64,000 nt of DNA from Candidatus Kryptoniota bacterium (GCA_036567965.1 DATCTN010000007.1:49009-113008); one strand, 5' to 3'; shown: positions 50,210 to 60,968, counted from the first letter of the stretch. Numbers and translations are program-made. The notes: a model not told the origin generated them from the letters alone.

Positions 50210-51265
50210 ATGGCCGAAATAGTAACCGTCAAGAACATTCTCCACGAGCACACCGTCGAAGGTGAACTGTATAAGAAACTTGACAACGACTGGGTGCTGT
50301 GTTACAGCTGCGGGCACAGGTGCAAGATTAAACCGGGAAGAGAAGGAATCTGCCGGGTCCGGTTCAATAGCAACGGTAAACTTATGGTTCCCTCCGGTTA
50401 TGCGGCCGGTGTCCAGCTGGACCCGATCGAGAAAAAACCTTTCTTCCACGCCTTCCCGGGATCGAATGCGCTTAGTTTTGGAATGCTGGGTTGTGATTAT
50501 CATTGCTCATATTGCCAGAATTGGCTCACGAGTCAAACGCTAAGAGATCCGTCCGCTATTCAACATCCGGAGGTAATCGAAGCGGAACGAATCGTTGAAC
50601 TCGCACTCATATACAAATCACCGGTCATTGTCTCAACTTACAATGAGCCGCTCATCACCAGTGAGTGGGCAGTTGAAATAATGAAACTTGCTAAGGCTTA
50701 TGGAATCAGGGGAGCGTATGTGTCAAATGGAAACGCGACTCCTGAAGTTATTGAATACATCAAGCCGTATGTTAACCTTTACAAGGTCGACTTGAAAGGG
50801 TTCGACGATCGGAGATACAGACAGCTTGGCGGAAGGCTGCAGGTTGTCCTCGATGCGATTCGCCTTCTCAAAGAAAAGAATTTCTGGGTCGAGGTAGTAA
50901 CTCTTGTGGTTCCAGGATTCAACGACAGTGAAACAGAGTTGCGAAGCATTGCATCTTTCATTGCATCAGTCTCAGTCGACATTCCGTGGCATGTCACTGC
51001 GTTCCACCAGGATTATAAGATGCTCGACCGGAACAGCACGAGCGTGAGATCGCTGGTGAGGGCAGCGGAAATCGGGAAAGAAGCGGGACTTCATTTCGTC
51101 TACGCGGGCAATCTTCATGGAATGGTAGACGATCTTGAAAACACATACTGTCCGAAGTGTGGAAGTCTCGCGATCGAACGAGAAGGTTATAGGGTACTTA
51201 AGAATCTTTTGAAGAAAGGAGCGTGTCCACAATGCTCCACGATGATTCCGGGCATATGGGATTGA
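50210..51265 (+). CDS. AmmeMemoRadiSam system radical SAM enzyme
   Basis: GCDYHCSYCQNW (CxxxCxxC), an N-terminal extra Cys cluster CYSCGHRC...C, and C-terminal CPKC...CPQC. PFL-activase-like length. Followed by AMMECR1 and Memo genes. Confidence 0.85.
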   Translation: MAEIVTVKNILHEHTVEGELYKKLDNDWVLCYSCGHRCKIKPGREGICRVRFNSNGKLMVPSGYAAGVQLDPIEKKPFFHAFPGSNALSFGMLGCDYHCSYCQNWLTSQTLRDPSAIQHPEVIEAERIVELALIYKSPVIVSTYNEPLITSEWAVEIMKLAKAYGIRGAYVSNGNATPEVIEYIKPYVNLYKVDLKGFDDRRYRQLGGRLQVVLDAIRLLKEKNFWVEVVTLVVPGFNDSETELRSIASFIASVSVDIPWHVTAFHQDYKMLDRNSTSVRSLVRAAEIGKEAGLHFVYAGNLHGMVDDLENTYCPKCGSLAIEREGYRVLKNLLKKGACPQCSTMIPGIWD

Positions 51266-51855
51266 GCTCAGGGCTTTCGGCGGAAGCCAAGGTTGAGCTT
51301 TTGAAAATCGCGAGAAGAGGGCTGGAAGCGGTCGTGAAAAGGGAGAAATTGAAGCTTGATACTCCGGTTCTCCCCGAGCTTCAAAGGGAGTCGGGGGCGT
51401 TTGTCACTTTGAGAGAGAAGGGTGAGCTACGCGGATGTATCGGGTATATCGAGCCCAGGCTCCCGATGTACAAGGCGGTGGCCGAGACGGCCAGCAAGGC
51501 CGCAACAAGTGACCCAAGATTTGAACCGGTGACTGAACCGGAGCTTGAAAAAATCGATCTGGAGGTTTCAATCCTCTCTGCGCTCAACAAAGTGACAAAT
51601 GTCGAAGAAATTGTTGTCGGGCGACATGGCCTGGTGATTGAGCGCGGGTACTACAGAGGCCTTCTTCTTCCGCAGGTCGCGGGCGAGAATAATTGGGACC
51701 GCAACGAGTTTCTCCGGTATACTTGTTTCAAGGCCGGTCTGGACGACGACAGCTGGCGGGATCCCGATACAAAAATATACAGCTTCACTGCAGAAGTGTT
51801 TGGTGAAAGTGAGTTCGGAAGGATTTCCGAGGAGAATATTGCAGAAAGAGCATGA
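51256..51855 (+). CDS. AmmeMemoRadiSam system protein A (AMMECR1 domain)
   Basis: GAFVTLREKGELRGCIGY (AMMECR1 RGCIG motif) and GLLLPQV. Start trimmed to MGLSSGL, a 10-nt overlap with the radical SAM gene. Confidence 0.85.
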   Translation: MGLSSGLSAEAKVELLKIARRGLEAVVKREKLKLDTPVLPELQRESGAFVTLREKGELRGCIGYIEPRLPMYKAVAETASKAATSDPRFEPVTEPELEKIDLEVSILSALNKVTNVEEIVVGRHGLVIERGYYRGLLLPQVAGENNWDRNEFLRYTCFKAGLDDDSWRDPDTKIYSFTAEVFGESEFGRISEENIAERA

Positions 51856-51859
51856 CTAC

Positions 51860-52681
51860 GTGCGTCCCCCGGCAGTAGCCGGGATGTTCTATCCGCTGGA
51901 GAAGGTGGAGCTCGAGAAGACAGTGCTCGACTTCCTCAAGAAGGCAGGGAAGGATATCGGATCGGCGGCGCCCACGAACCCGTTCGGAATAATATCGCCT
52001 CACGCCGGTTACCCCTACAGTGGATTCACTGCGGCTCATGGCTATTCGGTTCTGCGCGAAACAAACTTTGATACCGTCGTTTTGATTTCACCAAGTCACC
52101 GGGAGTACTTCGACGGCATTTCTGTTTTTTCCGGTAAAGCTTATTCTACTCCGCTGGGAACAATAGAAGTTGATACGGCTCTCCGCGAAACTTTTCTGCT
52201 AAGCGCCGGAGATATTGCGATCGAATCGCGCGCCGGCCACAAGTCGGAACACGCCCTTGAGGTCCAGCTACCATTTCTGCAACTCACTTTGAAGAGATTC
52301 GCCATACTTCCCCTTGTTATGGGAGACCAGCGACCCGAATACTGCGCAGCACTCGGCGGCGTTCTTGCAAAGATTGCGAACACGACCAAAATACTAGTCG
52401 TGGCAAGTTCCGACCTGTCGCACTATTACGACTACGATACGGCAAATGAAATTGACAAGATCTGCATCAACGATCTGACGGAGATGGACCCCGACAGATT
52501 TACGCGGGATCTCGAAGCACATAAGTGCGAGGCGTGTGGTGGAGGACCGATAGCCGCGCTTCTTTACGCTGCGCGGGACCTGAACCGCCGAAAGATAACG
52601 ATTCTCCATCACTGTAATTCCGGGGATACGACAGGTGATAAGTCCGGAGTTGTCGGATACTTGTCAGCCGTCGTCTCGTGA
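51860..52681 (+). CDS. AmmeMemoRadiSam system protein B (Memo-like)
   Basis: In-frame GTG start giving (M)RPPAVAGMFYP, then ISPHAGYPYSG, SSDLSHYY and CEACGGGP. 4-nt gap after protein A. Confidence 0.85.
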   Translation: MRPPAVAGMFYPLEKVELEKTVLDFLKKAGKDIGSAAPTNPFGIISPHAGYPYSGFTAAHGYSVLRETNFDTVVLISPSHREYFDGISVFSGKAYSTPLGTIEVDTALRETFLLSAGDIAIESRAGHKSEHALEVQLPFLQLTLKRFAILPLVMGDQRPEYCAALGGVLAKIANTTKILVVASSDLSHYYDYDTANEIDKICINDLTEMDPDRFTRDLEAHKCEACGGGPIAALLYAARDLNRRKITILHHCNSGDTTGDKSGVVGYLSAVVS

Positions 52682-53604: not shown

Positions 53605-54387
53605 ATGGACTATCAGACTATTAAGATTGTGAAAGAGAAACATGCCGCAATAATCACAATTAACCGGCCCGAAAAGTTGAACGCGTTGAACGCCAATGTA
53701 CTGAAAGAGATCGGTTCAGCCCTGAGCAACATAGAGTCTGAAAAGTCAGTCGCCGGAGTGATCATTACCGGCGCGGGAGAAAAAGCTTTTGCTGCGGGCG
53801 CGGACATAAGCGAGCTGAGCAAACTCAGTGTTATAAACGCTAAGGACTATTCGGAACGCGGACAGACTCTCCTCAACACGATTGAGAAGTTTCGCAAGCC
53901 TGTCATTGCAGCTGTCAACGGTTACGCGCTGGGCGGCGGCAGCGAGCTGGCATGGGCGTGCCATATCAGAATCGCCTCGACCAACGCGCGATTCGGACAA
54001 CCGGAAGTGAACCTCGGAATGATACCGGGATTCGGCGGCACTCAACGACTCGTAAGACTTGCCGGTCGCGGGATCGCTACCGAACTCATCGTATCGGGTA
54101 ACCAGATCGATGCCGAGACGGCTTTCAAGCATGGTTTGGTGAACAAGGTCGTCGAACTGGCATACTTGATCCCGACGGCGCTTCAACTTGTCCATGATAT
54201 TTCAGAACGTGGTCCGGTAGCCGTGAAATTGGCCCTGCAGGCGATCGACGCTGCCGTTCAACTTCCGCAGGACGAGGGAATGAAACTTGAGAGTCAACTC
54301 TTCGCGCTTACGTGCGGGACCGCCGATCAAAAGGAAGGAACAGCGGCTTTCCTGGAAAAACGCAAGCCAAACTGGACCGGCTCCTGA
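53605..54387 (+). CDS. Enoyl-CoA hydratase (crotonase family)
   Basis: ITGAGEKAFAAGADI and AAVNGYALGGGSELA. 260 aa. AGGAGG SD. Confidence 0.9.
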   Translation: MDYQTIKIVKEKHAAIITINRPEKLNALNANVLKEIGSALSNIESEKSVAGVIITGAGEKAFAAGADISELSKLSVINAKDYSERGQTLLNTIEKFRKPVIAAVNGYALGGGSELAWACHIRIASTNARFGQPEVNLGMIPGFGGTQRLVRLAGRGIATELIVSGNQIDAETAFKHGLVNKVVELAYLIPTALQLVHDISERGPVAVKLALQAIDAAVQLPQDEGMKLESQLFALTCGTADQKEGTAAFLEKRKPNWTGS

Positions 54388-54448
54388 GCAGAATGCCGAT
54401 CGAATTCTCCTTTCATAAACTCCCATCATTTTGTAAATTGAGAGAAGT

Positions 54449-55561
54449 ATGATGGATCCCGAAAGAAGATATAGAGTCCTCGTCGCGATGAGTGGTGGTG
54501 TCGATTCGTCACTGGCAGCTGCCTTGATGATGGAACAGGGATTTGATGTTATCGGCGCGACCATCAAGACCTACGAATACGAGGATGTGGGTGGCAATTC
54601 CGCCCAGGACTCAACCTGCTGCTCGATCGACGGCATAAACATGGCTCGAAGCGTGGCCAGCAGGTTTGGATTTCCTCATTATGTTTTCGACTTCAGCGAA
54701 CGTTTCAGAAATGATGTCATAGATCAATTTGTATCGGAGTATCTTGCCGGACGCACACCCAATCCGTGCGTCATCTGCAACAGGAAAATAAAATGGGAGT
54801 ACCTTCTCGAAAAGGCCGATAGTCTGGGAGTGGATTATATCGCGACCGGACATTACGCCCATGTGAAGCGGGACGATCGGTCGGGAAGATATGTCCTTTC
54901 AAGAGGCAAGGACTCTTCAAAAGACCAGTCTTACGCGCTTTACGGCCTGACACAGGAAAGTCTCTCACGAACTCTCTTCCCGCTCACAGACCTGACAAAA
55001 CAGGAAGTCCGCGAAATGGCACGCCGTTACCGACTGGCCAGTGCGGACAAGCCGGAGAGTTATGAAATTTGTTTCATACCTGATAACAACTATTCGAGGT
55101 TTCTCCGTGACATAGTTCCTGGATTGAAATCGAGACTTGCCGACGGTGAGATACGATTCAACGGAACTAAGGTCGGGATTCATCAGGGATACGCATTCTA
55201 TACGATCGGTCAGCGAAGAGGGCTCGGCATCAGTCATGAATCCCCGCTCTACGTCAAGGGGATCGATCCGTCTACAAATGTTGTAGAGGTTGATGTCGAA
55301 GAGAATCTCTATGCCAAGAGGCTCATCGCGGAACAGGTAAATCTCGTAAAATACTCCGAGGTGCCTGAAGGAATACCCCTTCGCGGAAAGATCCGATACA
55401 AGGACGCGGGCGCTGAATGCGTTGTGCGAAATCTCGATAACAGGAAAATTGAAGTCGAGTTCCTCAGCCCGCGAAGGGCAATAACGCCCGGCCAGAGTGT
55501 GGTCTTATACGAGGGCGACGATGTCGTGGCAGGTGGAATTATTTCAAATATTTTGGGTTGA
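54449..55561 (+). CDS. mnmA: tRNA 2-thiouridine(34) synthase
   Basis: VLVAMSGGVDSS (PP-loop), TPNPCVICNRKIKW and DQSY. Confidence 0.93.
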   Translation: MMDPERRYRVLVAMSGGVDSSLAAALMMEQGFDVIGATIKTYEYEDVGGNSAQDSTCCSIDGINMARSVASRFGFPHYVFDFSERFRNDVIDQFVSEYLAGRTPNPCVICNRKIKWEYLLEKADSLGVDYIATGHYAHVKRDDRSGRYVLSRGKDSSKDQSYALYGLTQESLSRTLFPLTDLTKQEVREMARRYRLASADKPESYEICFIPDNNYSRFLRDIVPGLKSRLADGEIRFNGTKVGIHQGYAFYTIGQRRGLGISHESPLYVKGIDPSTNVVEVDVEENLYAKRLIAEQVNLVKYSEVPEGIPLRGKIRYKDAGAECVVRNLDNRKIEVEFLSPRRAITPGQSVVLYEGDDVVAGGIISNILG

Positions 55562-55562
55562 T

Positions 55563-55970
55563 ATGGCGACTTACTCGGTATTGATTGCTGACGACGATGA
55601 ATCACAGAGAAACGTGCAGAAACTGGTTCTGAGCGAGGTGGCAAAGAGTCTGAATGCAGAATTGAAAATCGATGAGGCGATCGACAGCGTTGAAACGAGA
55701 AAATTCCTTTCGGCGAAGGTATTCGATCTGATTATTCTCGATAATGAATTCAAAGATGATTTGAAGCAGGGGCATCTTCCGGGTATCGCACTACTTCAAC
55801 TTATGCGCAAGGGCGGACCGAACATGGCGGCCCCTACGGTTTTCTGCAGCGGCGACCCATACAACACTCTTCGTCCCATGGTGGAAAAATTCGGAGCGGT
55901 GTACTATCCCAAGGCTAAAGCAGATGCCGAGGAGATGACCAAGATGTTTTCTAAGATGCTTCAGGATTGA
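55563..55970 (+). CDS. Stand-alone response regulator receiver domain
   Basis: VLIADDDESQ (acidic pocket), DLIILDNEF (phospho-acceptor Asp), VFCSG and YYPKAK. Start trimmed to MATYSV, 1 nt after the mnmA stop. Confidence 0.75.
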   Translation: MATYSVLIADDDESQRNVQKLVLSEVAKSLNAELKIDEAIDSVETRKFLSAKVFDLIILDNEFKDDLKQGHLPGIALLQLMRKGGPNMAAPTVFCSGDPYNTLRPMVEKFGAVYYPKAKADAEEMTKMFSKMLQD

Positions 55971-56662
55971 CTTGTCTTTCGCAGCTCAAGAACGATGTGC
56001 TGCGCCTTGTCGACAAGCTTTATGAGGGGATAATTTACTAGCCTCCAAATCCAAAGAGGGAGATTTTCAAAAAGAACGGCAGCTCGAAGGAGCGTCATCA
56101 CTTTGCTTCCGAAAATGTAAGCCTTGACGTTGCATCCAGGAAAGAGGCTCACAAGACCTCCCTTGTCGAAGCTGGTCAAATGAGCGTTCAAGGGGGTCGG
56201 CTGGTTGCAATGGATGCACAGCGTGTAACGAATCTTCTCTCTGTATGGAGTCGAGACCACGGCTTTTCCGTCGGGTTTCATGACTCGCAAGATCTCGCGT
56301 GCCGCAGCATCGGGAGAGTTCAAGTGTTCCATGATTTCGGAAGCGACAATCAGATTCATGGACTCGTCTTTGAACGGAAGATGAACAGCATCTGCGAGAA
56401 CCGGGGAGGATGTATCGGTCTTAAGACTTTGAAGATTCCTCAGCGATAGGTCTACGTAGTATAAATTCTCATGAGGAACAACTGAGATCCATCCGCTTCC
56501 GCTCCCGATGTCGAGCGTTCTCCCGGCTCCTCCCGCAAGGCGGACGATGAATTTCCGGAAAAGTTTTTCATATGCCCGGTCCGTGCGGTCCTCGTTCGTG
56601 AAATAATCGAAGTGTTCGGCATCAAGACTGTAGTGCCTGATGTAATTCTCGCAGCGACTCAT
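55961..56662 (-). CDS. Class I SAM-dependent methyltransferase
   Basis: TLDIGSGSGW (motif I) and a Methyltransf_11-like ADAVHLPFKDESMNLIVASEIMEHL. ATGA overlap with the macro gene. Confidence 0.8.
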   Translation of the reverse strand: MSRCENYIRHYSLDAEHFDYFTNEDRTDRAYEKLFRKFIVRLAGGAGRTLDIGSGSGWISVVPHENLYYVDLSLRNLQSLKTDTSSPVLADAVHLPFKDESMNLIVASEIMEHLNSPDAAAREILRVMKPDGKAVVSTPYREKIRYTLCIHCNQPTPLNAHLTSFDKGGLVSLFPGCNVKAYIFGSKVMTLLRAAVLFENLPLWIWRLVNYPLIKLVDKAQHIVLELRKTSQS

Positions 56663-57186
56663 GATTTGATATTCTTCAGTTCGTTTTCAAACGCCTGATA
56701 AGCTGCCGCGTCATAGAGTATAAATGTGACCCGCCGCAGAGAATGCGGTCGCGAGAAGACGCCGACGACTTCCTTCATCATCACCCGAGCCGCCTCGCCG
56801 AGAGGGAATCCACCGACTCCCGTTCCCAGCGCCGGTAATGCTATCGAACTGAGCTTCCTGGATTCCGCAAGTGTGAGTGCCGAACGCGTGGCCTCAGCGA
56901 TCTTGCCTCCATCTGTTTGCAGGTCTTGGTCCATTACGGCGGCGTGAATCACAAATCTTGCCTTTAACGTTCCGCCGGAGGTGATTACAGCAGAACCGAC
57001 AGGCATGGGACCCTGCGACATCGCCTCTTGTTCGATGGCGGTTCCACCCTTTCGCTTTATTGCCCCGGCTACTCCGCTCCCCATCCAGAAGTGATTGTTC
57101 GCCGCGTTTACGACAGCATCACCGCCATACTCGGCAATATCACCTTTTGCAAGCTCCAGGATACTTCCTTTAAAGTCCTTTTTCAT
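56659..57186 (-). CDS. Macro domain protein (ADP-ribose / O-acetyl-ADP-ribose binding or hydrolysing)
   Basis: GDIAEYGGDAVVNAANNHFWMGSGVAGAIKRKGG and ALPALGTGVGGFP. Confidence 0.85.
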   Translation of the reverse strand: MKKDFKGSILELAKGDIAEYGGDAVVNAANNHFWMGSGVAGAIKRKGGTAIEQEAMSQGPMPVGSAVITSGGTLKARFVIHAAVMDQDLQTDGGKIAEATRSALTLAESRKLSSIALPALGTGVGGFPLGEAARVMMKEVVGVFSRPHSLRRVTFILYDAAAYQAFENELKNIKS

Positions 57187-58790
57187 TTCGCTCGAGACTG
57201 GATCAACGGAAGCTTAACTGTCATCTTTGTCCCTTTGCCTAATTCGCTCTGGATCTGAATTTCACCGCCATGATCATCGACAATCTTCTTAACGATTGAC
57301 ATCCCGAGACCGGTGCCGTGTTTTTTTCCGTAGGTTACGAACGGCTCGAAGATTCTTCTCCTTATTTCTTCGGGCATGCCGGTACCGGTATCTTCGAGCT
57401 CGATCATAAGAGACGTGCCGCTTTGCCTTGAGCGGACAAAAAATTTGCCGCCGTCGGGCATTGCATCCGCCGAATTACCGGCTATGTTCATTAACATCCG
57501 AGTAATCTTGTCGGCATCGATCTCGATTTCACTTTCAAATGAATTCTCGTTCAATAAACTTATGTTACGTTTTTCGAAATCTCGCTGAAGGAACACTAGC
57601 ACTTCCTGGAGAAAATCTCCATAAGCGACTTTCTGAAAATTCAGCTGGGAGACTCCCCGTGAGAAATCGAGTACCTCCTGCGCCATGTTCACGAGTCGGT
57701 CGATCTGTTTATCGATCTCGTCGACAAGGCCCGAAGCTTCCTCGTTCCCGGCTTTCTTCCTCAATACCTGGGCGTAGAGTCGGATTGTCGCCATCGGGTT
57801 CTTGATATCATGGATGATCGTCGCTGCCATCTGACCTACAGCCGAAAGCCGCTCGCTTTTCACCATCTCAGCTGCCAAACGAGAATTCTCAATGGCAATG
57901 GAGGCATTTATAGAAAATGCACGGAGAAAGGTTTCGTCTTCTGTATCGAACTTGCCGATTCGTTTATTTATTAATTGGAAAACTCCTATGATTTTATTGT
58001 CCCTGTTATTCATCGGCATACAAAGTATGTTCTTGGTTTTAAACCCGCTTTTCAGATCAAATTCGGGATTGAACCTCGGGTCATGATAAGCGTCCTCGAT
58101 ATTAACCGTCTCGCCAGTCTGGGCCACATATCCTGAGATGCCTTTGCCGATGGACTGCCTGATCTCATTCATCTCGTTTCCAACGAGTATCCTCGACCAG
58201 ATCTCGTGTGTGTTTTCATCTATGAGATAAATTGTCCCGCGCTCCGCGTCTGTTATACGCATGGCCTCGTTTAATATGAGCTCGAGGACACGAGTAATTT
58301 CCAGCGACGTGTTTACGGTTTGAGTGGCTTCAATTAGAGCGTGGAGGCGGCTGATTTCCTTGTCGGTCTTCTGTCCCTGTGTCTCCATCTGAGTTTTAAG
58401 CGCATCCGCGGAAGCCTGCAGTCGACTGTAAAGAGTTCTTGCAATGTTCCATGAAATGACAGGGAATTGCTTTATCAGATCAGGGAGTGTCTCCCGATTG
58501 ATCTTCAACAATATGGAATCGCGGGTAGTAACCACGGTAGCCGAATTTCTCACTCCATCCACCATTGCCATCTCGCCGAAGAAATCGCCAGCCGAAAGAG
58601 TCCCGAGTTTCTCCTGTCTGTCGCCGATACGCTTTCTGATTTCTATTTCGCCCGACTTGATTATATAAAGTGCCTGAACCGGTCCCTTCTCCTCCATGAT
58701 GATCGTGCCAGCCGCGGCCTTCTCCTTGTGAAGCGGTTTGCACGCCTCGGCAACGTCTCTTTCGCTCATTCCTTCGAATAATGAATACAT
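57183..58790 (-). CDS. Cytoplasmic sensor histidine kinase: cNMP-binding + GAF + HisKA + HATPase_c
   Basis: An N-terminal CAP-type cNMP domain (GDFFGEMAMV...ATVV), a GAF region (ERGTIYLIDENTHEIW...GISGYVAQTGE), the H-box ATIIHDIKNPMATI, and DTGTGMPEE / GTGLGMSIV. No TM segments seen. Confidence 0.85.
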   Translation of the reverse strand: MYSLFEGMSERDVAEACKPLHKEKAAAGTIIMEEKGPVQALYIIKSGEIEIRKRIGDRQEKLGTLSAGDFFGEMAMVDGVRNSATVVTTRDSILLKINRETLPDLIKQFPVISWNIARTLYSRLQASADALKTQMETQGQKTDKEISRLHALIEATQTVNTSLEITRVLELILNEAMRITDAERGTIYLIDENTHEIWSRILVGNEMNEIRQSIGKGISGYVAQTGETVNIEDAYHDPRFNPEFDLKSGFKTKNILCMPMNNRDNKIIGVFQLINKRIGKFDTEDETFLRAFSINASIAIENSRLAAEMVKSERLSAVGQMAATIIHDIKNPMATIRLYAQVLRKKAGNEEASGLVDEIDKQIDRLVNMAQEVLDFSRGVSQLNFQKVAYGDFLQEVLVFLQRDFEKRNISLLNENSFESEIEIDADKITRMLMNIAGNSADAMPDGGKFFVRSRQSGTSLMIELEDTGTGMPEEIRRRIFEPFVTYGKKHGTGLGMSIVKKIVDDHGGEIQIQSELGKGTKMTVKLPLIQSRAK

Positions 58791-58952
58791 ATCCTGTCTC
58801 TAGATTGGCCACGAAAGTTAATTTAAGCCCAACAACAATCGCAAGAACCGAGTGTTGTTCACGTCACAACTTTGACGAACTTGTTATCGCCCCGCGTCTC
58901 AATCTGGCTTGATTTTGAACTATCTGTAGGGCTATTTTAAATCATCAATCAA

Positions 58953-60968
58953 GTGTTCAAAATACCTAAGTCATTCCTGATTGTGCTCGTAGCGGCGTCC
59001 GCAACACTCTCTGGTTGCCTCGTATGGAATTCCGTGAAAGGCGGCTATCAGGACTTCACAGCGTACTTCAACACCTACTACAACGCGCAAGACGCGTTCG
59101 ATAAAGGTGTGAAGGACGTCCAGAGCGCGATGAAAGACAGAGAAATATCAATCATCTCCGGCTCTCAACCGACTCCATTCGTCATCAGCGGAACAGCGAA
59201 GCAAGATTTTGACGTTGCGATCGAGAAGGCCTCCAAGGTTCTCCAGTATTATCCTACTTCCGCTTACACTCAGGATTGTCTGTTCATGATTGGAATCAGT
59301 TACTACTACGAGGGAGATGACCTTAAAGGTGGGAGAAAGTTTATCGAGATCGAGTCAACTTTTCCTCACACGGACAGGTACGATGAAGCACTCCTTTATC
59401 AGGGTGGGATGCTCCTCAGCCAGCGGGATTACAACCGGGCGTTCGATACTCTGAGCAAAGCGCTGAATGTCTCGAGAGCAAACAGGAACTGGGAAATTGC
59501 CGCCAGGGCTTCGGAGACTCTCTCCGACTATTATCTTTCGCAGAACGATACGCTTAACGCCGCCGCATATCTCGACACAGCGTCCACACTCTCAAGCGGG
59601 GACAACGCGGCAATTTATGCGTGCGAGGCGGGCGACATGTTCAGTGACCTTCACCAATATAAGCGCGCCTACCTCACCTATGCGCTTGGTTTGAGCGTTG
59701 CACGCGATATCAAGCTCCGATTCTATTCCGCGTATTACGTGGCGTCCGTTCAAAGACTCCAGAAACGATATTACCAGGCGCTGAACACGCTCGCTGACAT
59801 TCGTGACGACGACAAATACTATTTATACTTTCCGCTGATCGACTACCAGACAGCGCAGGTTCTCTACGACTCAGGTGCCGTTTCGTCCGCCGTCTTGACA
59901 TTTACTCGAATCGATACTGAGTTCACATCGAGCGAGGCCGCTACCCGGGCGGCATTTGAGTTGGGAAATACTTATCTCTACCAGGTCGGAGATTTCACAA
60001 CGGCATTAAAATATTTTCAACGATGTGCCTCACATCCCCTGGTATATGGATTGTCTCAGAAAGCTCAGGCGCTTGCGGCACTCCTTCAGGAATACCTCAT
60101 GGATTCCTATAGGGTGGTGATCGCAGACAGTCTCTACGCCCATGCGATCGAGGCGGCTGACAAAGGCGATTCGGCGCTTGCAAAGAGCGCGGTTCCGATT
60201 GACACATTATTTGAGCGCACGGCCGATGCGCAACAAGGGCTCGCAGGTTTCTTCATGTTCAAATTGAAATTGCCCGATTCGGCCATAGTCCATTACAAGA
60301 TGATTGTCCGCCATTTCAAGAAATCCAGGGCATACCCGTCAGCGTTATACACACTTGGCGAGCACTACTTCTCGGAAGGGGACACAGCCGCTGCAAGGAC
60401 TTATCTTGGCCTCCTTCTTGCAGAAGACCCCGAGTCGGAATATGCCGCACCCACAAGCACCATGCTCGGTGTGAACTATGTTAAGGACACAGACTCCTCA
60501 CAGAGTAACTACGACTCTGCGATTGAGCTCGTTAACAAAGGGAGTTACCATTCGGCTATCAGGTTGTTGGATACGCTGGCATTGAGTTCTAAATCGCGAT
60601 TTGCTGCTCAATCGCTGTACGCTATCGGATGGATCTATGAGCACAAGCTCCAGGCATACGATTCAGCCGCGGTGTATTACAGGTTAGTTGTTCAGAAATA
60701 CCCGGCAAGCGATTTCAGCTCCGAAATTAGGCTCGCACTGAACGGTTTCGATCAGGCTCGGCGCGACAGCGCGGCGAGCCACGTAATTCCAAATGCCCCG
60801 GCGGTGCCGACTGAGCAGAAGCCGGCTGTAACGGACTCAAGCAATGCCGGTTTTCGGATGCTTCAAGAGCGCGATCGGATGCTTGACTCGTTGAAATCTG
60901 TCCGCAAAATGTCGGAGCGGCCCGGACTCGATAGTGCGGCGACTCGCCGCGAACGTATTATCAGGTAA
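58953..60968 (+). CDS. Tetratricopeptide-repeat lipoprotein
   Basis: Lipobox ATLSGC. There are many TPR-like A/Y-rich helical repeats such as YDEALLYQGGMLLSQRDYNRAFDTLSKAL. GTG start. Confidence 0.7.
   Translation: MFKIPKSFLIVLVAASATLSGCLVWNSVKGGYQDFTAYFNTYYNAQDAFDKGVKDVQSAMKDREISIISGSQPTPFVISGTAKQDFDVAIEKASKVLQYYPTSAYTQDCLFMIGISYYYEGDDLKGGRKFIEIESTFPHTDRYDEALLYQGGMLLSQRDYNRAFDTLSKALNVSRANRNWEIAARASETLSDYYLSQNDTLNAAAYLDTASTLSSGDNAAIYACEAGDMFSDLHQYKRAYLTYALGLSVARDIKLRFYSAYYVASVQRLQKRYYQALNTLADIRDDDKYYLYFPLIDYQTAQVLYDSGAVSSAVLTFTRIDTEFTSSEAATRAAFELGNTYLYQVGDFTTALKYFQRCASHPLVYGLSQKAQALAALLQEYLMDSYRVVIADSLYAHAIEAADKGDSALAKSAVPIDTLFERTADAQQGLAGFFMFKLKLPDSAIVHYKMIVRHFKKSRAYPSALYTLGEHYFSEGDTAAARTYLGLLLAEDPESEYAAPTSTMLGVNYVKDTDSSQSNYDSAIELVNKGSYHSAIRLLDTLALSSKSRFAAQSLYAIGWIYEHKLQAYDSAAVYYRLVVQKYPASDFSSEIRLALNGFDQARRDSAASHVIPNAPAVPTEQKPAVTDSSNAGFRMLQERDRMLDSLKSVRKMSERPGLDSAATRRERIIR

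Follow-up and report, generated by a model that had tools for sequence, protein, structure and literature searches.

Limited conservation of gene order around an orphan CAP/GAF histidine kinase, a macro domain protein and a methyltransferase in Kryptoniota-like bacteria

In the SirTM/macro/GcvH-L/LplA2 operon, a macro protein is encoded together with the enzyme or the target of its action, and we know of no described bacterial link between two-component or cyclic-nucleotide sensing and ADP-ribose chemistry. Here we examined a locus at positions 55563-58790 of a 64,000-nucleotide stretch from a Candidatus Kryptoniota bacterium (GCA_036567965.1 DATCTN010000007.1:49009-113008; the whole stretch is called the window, and positions are counted from its first letter). 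On its minus strand, genes for a histidine kinase with a CAP-type cyclic-nucleotide-binding domain and a GAF domain, a macro domain protein, and an S-adenosylmethionine (SAM) methyltransferase overlap one another, and they converge with a plus-strand gene for a single-domain receiver. Among orphan kinases, SgmT of Myxococcus contains a GAF domain and is reported to be paired with the orphan regulator DigR (PMC3509222). In Thermus, the gene for the macro protein TTHA0132 is counted as a transcription unit by itself (PMC7662524).

A preliminary description of the locus, made from the sequence alone, did not recognize the gene set as a described signaling system. This still holds, as none was found in literature searches, which returned no kinase-macro or macro-methyltransferase module, or with PADLOC. 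Membership in a defense system was rejected because the PADLOC matches were of domain-level likeness only, with the CAP-type domain resembling Pycsar effector sensors, the macro domain DarG (31 bits), and the methyltransferase mad2 (28 bits). DarTG was also rejected, with DarG model scores of 28.4 bits (NCBIfam, cut-off 250) and 30.8 bits (PADLOC) and no DarT-like neighbor, as was a sirtuin-macro operon, with no sirtuin, GcvH-L, lipoate ligase, or ADP-ribosyltransferase in the neighborhood. The genes concerned were placed as follows, from the open reading frame (ORF) map unless noted.

57183-58790, minus strand: kinase, ORF of 535 amino acids
56659-57186, minus strand: macro protein, ORF of 175 amino acids
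55961-56662, minus strand: methyltransferase, ORF of 233 amino acids
55563-55970, plus strand: receiver, 135 amino acids counted from the ATG
54449-55561, plus strand: mnmA, tRNA 2-thiouridine synthase (NCBIfam NF001138, 413 bits versus a cut-off of 284)

The layout given in the preliminary description was borne out. ATGA overlaps, both read in the sequence at 57183-57186 and 56659-56662, join the three minus-strand genes, and the receiver TGA (55968-55970) crosses the methyltransferase stop codon (55961-55963) in a convergent 10-bp overlap. A single nucleotide (nt) lies between the mnmA stop codon and the receiver ATG, attaching the receiver gene to the end of the mnmA unit, and no DNA-binding response regulator is encoded among the operon genes. 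The kinase had also been called soluble, and this label holds because segments of transmembrane strength are missing from all four proteins, with maximum Kyte-Doolittle 19-mer values of 0.6-1.3 across the kinase, macro protein, methyltransferase, and receiver.

Conservation of the gene order

The kinase, macro, and methyltransferase genes, with or without the receiver gene, are not a conserved signaling module. We compared 80 loci with kinase orthologues, one locus per GTDB species and with up to 8 kb per flank; they were searched with ten local window proteins, and all their neighboring ORFs were clustered. The 71 in which the sequence runs on for at least 700 nt past the kinase gene were scoreable. 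The macro gene was directly downstream of the kinase gene in 16 of the 71. The methyltransferase gene was present in 7 and the receiver gene in 8, all of them in a syntenic Kryptoniota-like clade. The eight species of this clade (kinase identity 54-67%) share about 12 syntenic genes in the order PyrD-PyrK-TPR / kinase-macro-methyltransferase / receiver-MnmA-ECH-...-DUF2520 (TPR, tetratricopeptide repeat lipoprotein; ECH, enoyl-CoA hydratase), with the methyltransferase gene missing from one otherwise syntenic locus, L006. Across the remaining ~63 scoreable species, the kinase gene lies among housekeeping genes, namely those for trigger factor/ClpP/ClpX, RdgB/RadA, HflX, LarA, or LarC/KdtA, and further those for HpnE and squalene-synthase-like proteins, ABC-F, or a small membrane protein. 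Because the triad occurs only where the whole neighborhood is syntenic, shared ancestry is enough to explain its conservation. Across reshuffled lineages the triad did not stay together (7/71); the kinase-macro adjacency alone did so, in part (16/71). The dedicated kinase/macro/methyltransferase signaling module first envisaged therefore has little support, the triad being confined to Kryptoniota-like synteny. The three-gene arrangement does extend beyond this genome, being kept in Kryptoniota-like relatives, but this is too shallow to carry a functional inference.

With moderate confidence, we read the locus as an operon specific to its lineage, in which an orphan kinase is joined to two enzymes that are loosely related or unrelated. 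Going by the conserved 4-bp overlaps, the three genes of the window's clade very probably share one transcript and are coupled in translation, and to this extent the co-translation proposed earlier is supported by the layout. The macro-methyltransferase junction was -4 nt in eight of nine relatives of this clade. The kinase-macro gap there was -11 to +2 nt, apart from an outlier of -53 nt in locus L087, which is likely a start codon mis-pick. Functional coupling is overestimated when it is judged from overlapping genes and domain content alone, without a check of conservation past syntenic relatives.

The full model drawn from the preliminary description goes further, with the four genes as one dedicated system that would tie cyclic-nucleotide sensing to reversible ADP-ribosylation and/or methylation, with antisense control in addition; this we consider highly improbable. 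The four genes are adjacent here and in 7-8 related species, ATGA overlaps link the three operon genes, and the receiver and kinase families occur in the same lineages with parallel identities (47-52% versus 45-50%). Yet the four-gene order is limited to a clade with wholesale synteny, within which L006 dispenses with the methyltransferase. Furthermore, the methyltransferase family is small and its genes lie elsewhere in other lineages, and the receiver orthologues of other lineages follow an amidohydrolase gene, far from both the kinase and mnmA. The convergent 3' overlap, for which antisense interference had been considered, has no comparative support as to such a role: the 3' ends of the methyltransferase and receiver genes are +1 to +123 nt apart in relatives, the -10 of the window is peculiar to this genome, and antisense control through it was rejected as a conserved feature.

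Three observations weigh against a merely lineage-specific association. The kinase and macro genes keep their order and strand both in the Kryptoniota-like clade and in at least two Ignavibacteria-like clades with wholly different other flanks, and no other adjacency is common to these lineages; since this is the classical signature of a coupled pair, it speaks to some degree for functional coupling. Throughout the window's clade, the -4 overlaps are kept. In addition, the macro-methyltransferase pair recurs in three metagenomic loci at 38-43% methyltransferase identity.

It is conceivable, if unlikely, that the kinase and macro protein are a functional pair and the methyltransferase a clade-specific add-on. 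The macro protein would then reverse ADP-ribosylation of the kinase or of its target, or it would clear or bind an ADP-ribose-derived metabolite tied to the nucleotide signal of the kinase. Such a pair is consistent with the adjacency being found in 16/71 kinase loci and 11/65 macro loci, in no fewer than three regions of the kinase tree and with unrelated other flanks, and with extreme conservation of the macro motifs (53 invariant columns in the alignment of 14 orthologues). In the neighbor-joining tree of the kinase, the macro-linked members are the Kryptoniota-like clade together with two sister loci in which a family 9 glycosyltransferase (GT9) gene follows the macro gene, a single locus that stands apart, and an Ignavibacteria-like clade in which KdtA/LarC lie upstream. 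Large macro-less clades separate these groups. In the Ignavibacteria-like loci, which have no methyltransferase gene at this position, the kinase-macro gap is 48-84 nt and contains a terminator-like hairpin in 1 of 12 only; the 11 other gaps count in favor of a pair. On the other hand, no macro gene adjoins about three quarters of the kinase orthologues, among them those of sister lineages in which KdtA/LarC are likewise upstream, most macro orthologues are in housekeeping contexts where the kinase is not found, no ADP-ribosyltransferase or sirtuin is encoded in the neighborhood, and neutral retention of an ancestral adjacency accounts for the same data.

The loss of the adjacent macro gene in about three quarters of species, even in close sisters with the same upstream genes, shows that the kinase is independent of an adjacent macro gene, and we return to the lineage-specific operon as the preferred explanation. 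The kinase-macro adjacency would be ancestral to the Ignavibacteriota-Kryptoniota lineage, vertically inherited with repeated loss and kept in about a fifth of species, and the methyltransferase gene would have joined it only in the Kryptoniota-like clade. The kinase would sense, most likely, cAMP or cGMP, mainly through its GAF domain, which is of the cyclic nucleotide phosphodiesterase (PDE)/CyaB2 type, and would autophosphorylate on His327 and pass the phosphate to a regulator presumably encoded elsewhere. The macro protein would bind ADP-ribose and, judging from its family, probably remove ADP-ribose or deacetylate O-acetyl-ADP-ribose, and the third protein would act as a class I SAM methyltransferase of a small family. 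The bolder proposal, that kinase-macro is an undescribed Ignavibacteriota/Kryptoniota unit coupling a cAMP/cGMP-sensing kinase to ADP-ribose processing, to which a methyltransferase with a Cys/His knuckle was added in Kryptoniota, seems to us improbable. If the kinase-macro link were functional, it would join two-component signaling and cyclic-nucleotide sensing to bacterial ADP-ribose chemistry.

The same adjacencies were examined from the macro side in 80 metagenomic loci with macro orthologues of 51-67% identity, 65 of them scoreable upstream and 60 downstream. The kinase gene was upstream of the macro gene in 11 of the 65 and the methyltransferase gene downstream in 5 of the 60. Other contexts of the macro gene included an XRE-type helix-turn-helix (HTH) gene and DUF2851 by groESL (13 loci), a GT9 gene, a THEP1-like NTPase gene, miaA, and a CPBP protease gene. 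In the macro tree, all kinase-linked macro proteins fell in one half, mixed with a few unlinked ones, and the other contexts filled the other half, as expected for inheritance plus loss. The order kinase-macro-GT9, in which the GT9 gene is heptosyltransferase-like, recurs in four metagenomic loci (L090, L095, L099, and L152). In two others (L108 and L120), macro and GT9 genes are together with a different gene upstream, so that the macro gene is separable from the kinase gene while its downstream neighbor is kept; the L091 sequence does not reach far enough upstream to show which gene is there.

Macro-methyltransferase pairs were met from the macro side in L088, L096, and L125, of which at least L096 has no kinase gene upstream. 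From the methyltransferase side, six second-tier loci had neither a macro nor a kinase gene nearby, nor any other partner from the window. As a real unit this pair was set aside as a weak lead, the six loci without a macro gene standing against the three with one.

In 13 of the macro loci, an XRE-type HTH gene of ~80 amino acids precedes the macro gene on the same strand (L101, L103, L107, L113, L123, L124, L132, L140, L143, L144, L149, L153, and L161). Beyond it, groES/groEL are divergent in 9 of the 13, namely those that reach far enough upstream, and DUF2851 closely follows the macro gene in five and is found further downstream in two more (L140 and L161). XRE-HTH/macro is a different recurring context of the same macro subfamily in another lineage.

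The kinase family and its putative nucleotide sensors

The domain make-up given for the kinase in the preliminary description was confirmed, as cNMP_binding, GAF, HisKA, and HATPase_c all scored above their Pfam gathering thresholds: cNMP_binding at amino acids 24-108 with 67 bits (cut-off 27.5), GAF at 166-300 with 74 bits, HisKA with 52.8 bits (cut-off 26.9), and HATPase_c with 88.5 bits. The domains occupy the following positions.

58467-58721, minus strand: CAP-type cyclic-nucleotide-binding domain, amino acids 24-108 (Pfam PF00027, 67 bits)
57885-58304, minus strand: GAF domain of the PDE/CyaB2 type that binds cyclic nucleotide monophosphates (cNMP), amino acids ~163-302 (Pfam GAF and PDB relatives)
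57204-57839, minus strand: transmitter module of HisKA (amino acids 318-379) and HATPase_c (amino acids 425-529) (Pfam)

Proteins with these same four domains form a family of more than 100 clusters, 530-585 amino acids long (most 535-545) and 48-71% identical, whose members are annotated as Kryptoniota, Ignavibacteria, or "Bacteroidota" metagenome-assembled genomes (MAGs). The H-box IHDIKNP carries the phospho-accepting His327, and H327-D-I-K-x-P is invariant among 20 orthologues, as are the ATPase boxes N435/N439, D467-x-G469-x-G471, and G492-T-G-L-G496. The nearest NCBIfam matches of the transmitter are of the AtoS/ZraS type and far under the family cut-offs. No response regulator was found beside the kinase in the window or among the recurring neighbor clusters of the 80 orthologue loci, and the kinase is therefore a true orphan across its family. 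Literature searches returned no study of any member of this ~535-amino-acid family, which can now be defined as a widespread, unstudied family of soluble orphan kinases of Ignavibacteriota/Kryptoniota that have a CAP-type and a PDE/CyaB2-type GAF domain together.

The preliminary description took the kinase for a sensor of a second messenger. This is a reasonable inference mainly because of the GAF domain, which had not been singled out, and the kinase probably senses cyclic nucleotides. Among solved structures, the GAF domain is best matched by CyaB2 (1YKD, 7e-46), PDE5A (3.5e-34), PDE2A (2.8e-29), and PDE10A (2.8e-26), and it is much nearer to these cNMP-binding domains than to any other solved GAF domain. 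The NKFDE motif is conserved in most characterized cNMP-binding GAF domains (PMC4411481), and its presence alone is no proof of cNMP binding. Here it reads N275-K276...F281...D285-E286, with N275, K276, F281, and D285 invariant and E286 at least 90% conserved in the alignment of 20 orthologues.

The part of the same claim that concerns the CAP-type domain is weakened by a phosphate-binding cassette that is non-canonical in the window's clade. Gly72-Glu73 of the cassette are kept and are invariant among 20 orthologues. After GDFFGEMAMV, the domain reads V-R82-N83-S-A in place of the canonical P-R-S-A, and in HMMER alignments Asn83 sits opposite the phosphate-binding Arg of PKG/PKA domains, so the canonical Arg is missing at this position. 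In the orthologue alignment, distant (Ignavibacteria-like) members have P-R-S-A, with [R/K]-N-S-A or x-A-[S/T]-A in its place in the window's clade. The CAP-type domain may thus have altered or lost nucleotide binding in this clade. Within one kinase family, then, the Arg of the CAP-type domain is replaced in the window's clade while the GAF domain has NKFDE residues that are invariant, or nearly so, in all members, a contrast that may reflect the drift of one of two tandem nucleotide sensors.

The macro protein, methyltransferase, and receiver

The second gene encodes a 175-amino-acid macro domain protein, as had been stated (Pfam Macro, 112 bits versus a cut-off of 22). It carries the motifs NAANNHFWMGSGVAGAI and GTGVGGFP, both invariant among 14 orthologues, as are the ADP-ribose-binding loops N27-A-A-N30, G36-x-G38-V-A-G41, and G121-T-G-V-G125. 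Its nearest structure is that of TTHA0132 from Thermus thermophilus (2DX6, E 4e-33, about 50% identity over 131 residues), followed by PARP14 macro 1, macroH2A1.1, and bacterial MacroD/YmdB. By these sequence features it is a stand-alone MacroD-like protein of the TTHA0132/Af1521 subgroup, and it very likely binds ADP-ribose. In this case, Ala40 stands where the proposed catalytic Asp of GGG-V-D-G would be, and this Asp is missing. TTHA0132 and Af1521 make up a subgroup with a natural Asp-to-Ala change, and Af1521 is nevertheless an active hydrolase (PMC5413906). With Ala40 shared by Af1521, which is active, we regard hydrolase activity of the macro protein as plausible.

In a relative of the syntenic clade with a complete chromosome (OY969815.1, L004:9611-10140), the macro frame is interrupted some 115 residues in, so that 112 nt separate it from the methyltransferase gene; kinase and methyltransferase are intact. 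Either the frameshift is genuine and the gene a pseudogene, or an indel was introduced in long-read assembly.

The product of the third gene was correctly named a class I methyltransferase (Methyltransf_11, 60 bits, above the Pfam gathering score). Its SAM motif L-D51-I-G53-S-G55-S-G and D71 are invariant across 28 family members. After the Rossmann core, there is a Cys/His knuckle, L-C149-x-H151-C152-N...H161-L-H163, of which C149, H151, C152, and H161 are invariant and H163 is replaced by Thr in the window protein; this C-x-H-C...H-x-H cluster suggests a metal site. The C-terminal region is hydrophobic. It is a small family: 67 proteins reach E<=1e-10, of which about 46 are Kryptoniota-like (55-66% identity) and a second tier is at 34-41%. 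Five second-tier members (P0167, P0169, P0171, P0175, and P0181) have an N-terminal extension of ~50 residues ending in G-[IV]-P-[IV]-[LM]-[LI]. Assignment to a family with a named substrate (BioC, UbiE/UbiG, or ArsM) gave none, with BioC the best NCBIfam equivalog at 45 bits versus 185, and a PDB sequence search gave generic weak matches only (E>=2e-5). What can be defined is the methyltransferase family itself, which is small and marked by its conserved Cys/His knuckle.

The receiver is a single-domain CheY-like protein encoded by the last gene of the plus-strand mnmA string, convergent with the methyltransferase gene. It scores 25.2 bits against Pfam Response_reg (PF00072), under the gathering cut-off of 30.2, and most members of its family carry a precomputed PF00072 match. 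The phosphorylation residues D10/D11/D12, D60 (ILDNEF), S96 (S or T in orthologues), and K117 are kept in the window protein and seven orthologues. The family has 247 members from the same lineages as the kinase.

The kinase may have its cognate partner in this receiver family, encoded apart in most genomes and close only in Kryptoniota, a possibility that we find doubtful and that is compatible with the other explanations of the locus. The two orphan families cover the same taxonomic range and have diverged to a similar extent (in Ignavibacteria-like MAGs, identities fall in parallel tiers of 47-52% for the receiver and 45-50% for the kinase), all phosphorylation residues are kept, and no other response regulator ever adjoins the kinase. 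Against this, co-occurrence was judged from source names and identity tiers only, the genomes of the group encode many receivers, and transmitters like AtoS/ZraS usually pair with NtrC-type regulators, a similarity that is here far under the cut-offs.

Three second-tier receiver loci of Ignavibacteria-like genomes are far from mnmA and the kinase and have no other partner from the window. In all three (L169:6168-8405, L170:6152-8411, and L171:6151-8408), the receiver orthologue follows an Amidohydro_3 gene and is followed by prmC and then the genes for D-Tyr-tRNA deacylase and comEC. Amidohydro_3-receiver-prmC is a second conserved context of this single-domain receiver family. The receiver gene of the window belongs to the mnmA gene string, and its closeness to the kinase gene is specific to the Kryptoniota-like clade.

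Flanking genes and comparison with described systems

The flanking genes are of the housekeeping kind, including pyrD/pyrK, the TPR lipoprotein gene, mnmA, the enoyl-CoA hydratase gene, and a Memo/AMMECR1/radical-SAM trio. The last three, at 50210-52681 on the plus strand (coordinates converted from the gene calls of locus L001), are head to tail with short overlaps, in the order radical SAM, AMMECR1, Memo, just upstream of the DUF2520-ECH-mnmA-receiver string; they look like the "AmmeMemoRadiSam" trio, whose function is unknown. The TPR lipoprotein gene (58953-60968, plus strand) is divergent from the kinase gene, and its product matches PorW/SprE, a lipoprotein of type IX secretion, over part of its length and under the threshold (138 bits versus a cut-off of 250). 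It adjoins the kinase gene upstream in 7 of 8 Kryptoniota-like GTDB loci as well as in metagenomic loci L085 and L127. The region between these two genes is likely the promoter region of the kinase operon, and a scan for sigma-70 promoters listed two promoter-like sites inside the unit.

58791-58952, 162 nt: intergenic region between the divergent kinase and TPR lipoprotein genes (ORF map and sequence)
56690-56661, minus strand: promoter-like site just 5' of the methyltransferase ATG (sigma-70 scan)
56007-56034, plus strand: promoter-like site (sigma-70 scan)

The scan for sigma-70 promoters and intrinsic terminators covered 54300-59100 and gave no promoter-like or terminator-like excess over shuffled sequence, Bacteroidota-type promoters being outside the scan consensus. 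The two promoter-like sites inside the unit are fewer than the shuffled mean of 4.5, and no promoter-like site was found in 58791-58952, again with a consensus that is not of the Bacteroidota type. The sigma-70 scan is uninformative here because the phylum may not use promoters of this type.

The kinase, its GAF domain, and the macro protein have described relatives with which they can be compared. Like SgmT and similar orphan kinases, the window kinase is a soluble HisKA/HATPase_c protein with a GAF sensor and no cognate regulator in its operon; unlike them, it has an N-terminal CAP-type domain together with an NKFDE-type GAF domain, and it lacks a built-in receiver domain. The GAF domains of CyaB2 and PDE2/5/10 (1YKD, 3LFV, 1MC0, and 2ZMF) are the best solved relatives of its GAF domain (E 7e-46 to 3e-26) and share the NKFDE residues. 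In contrast to these proteins, the output of the window protein is a histidine kinase and not a cyclase or phosphodiesterase, and it has one GAF domain and not a tandem pair, with a putative cyclic-nucleotide ligand. The macro protein shares with TTHA0132 and Af1521 the motifs NAANN...G-x-G-V-A-G-A-I and LGTGVGG and the Ala at the Asp position, and differs from TTHA0132 in that its gene overlaps both neighbors, the kinase gene on the upstream side and the methyltransferase gene on the downstream side. In the DarT/DarG toxin-antitoxin and SirTM/macro operons, a macro domain, stand-alone or fused, is encoded with a working partner; the macro gene of the window is likewise in an operon, and the genes beside it there are those for a kinase and a methyltransferase.

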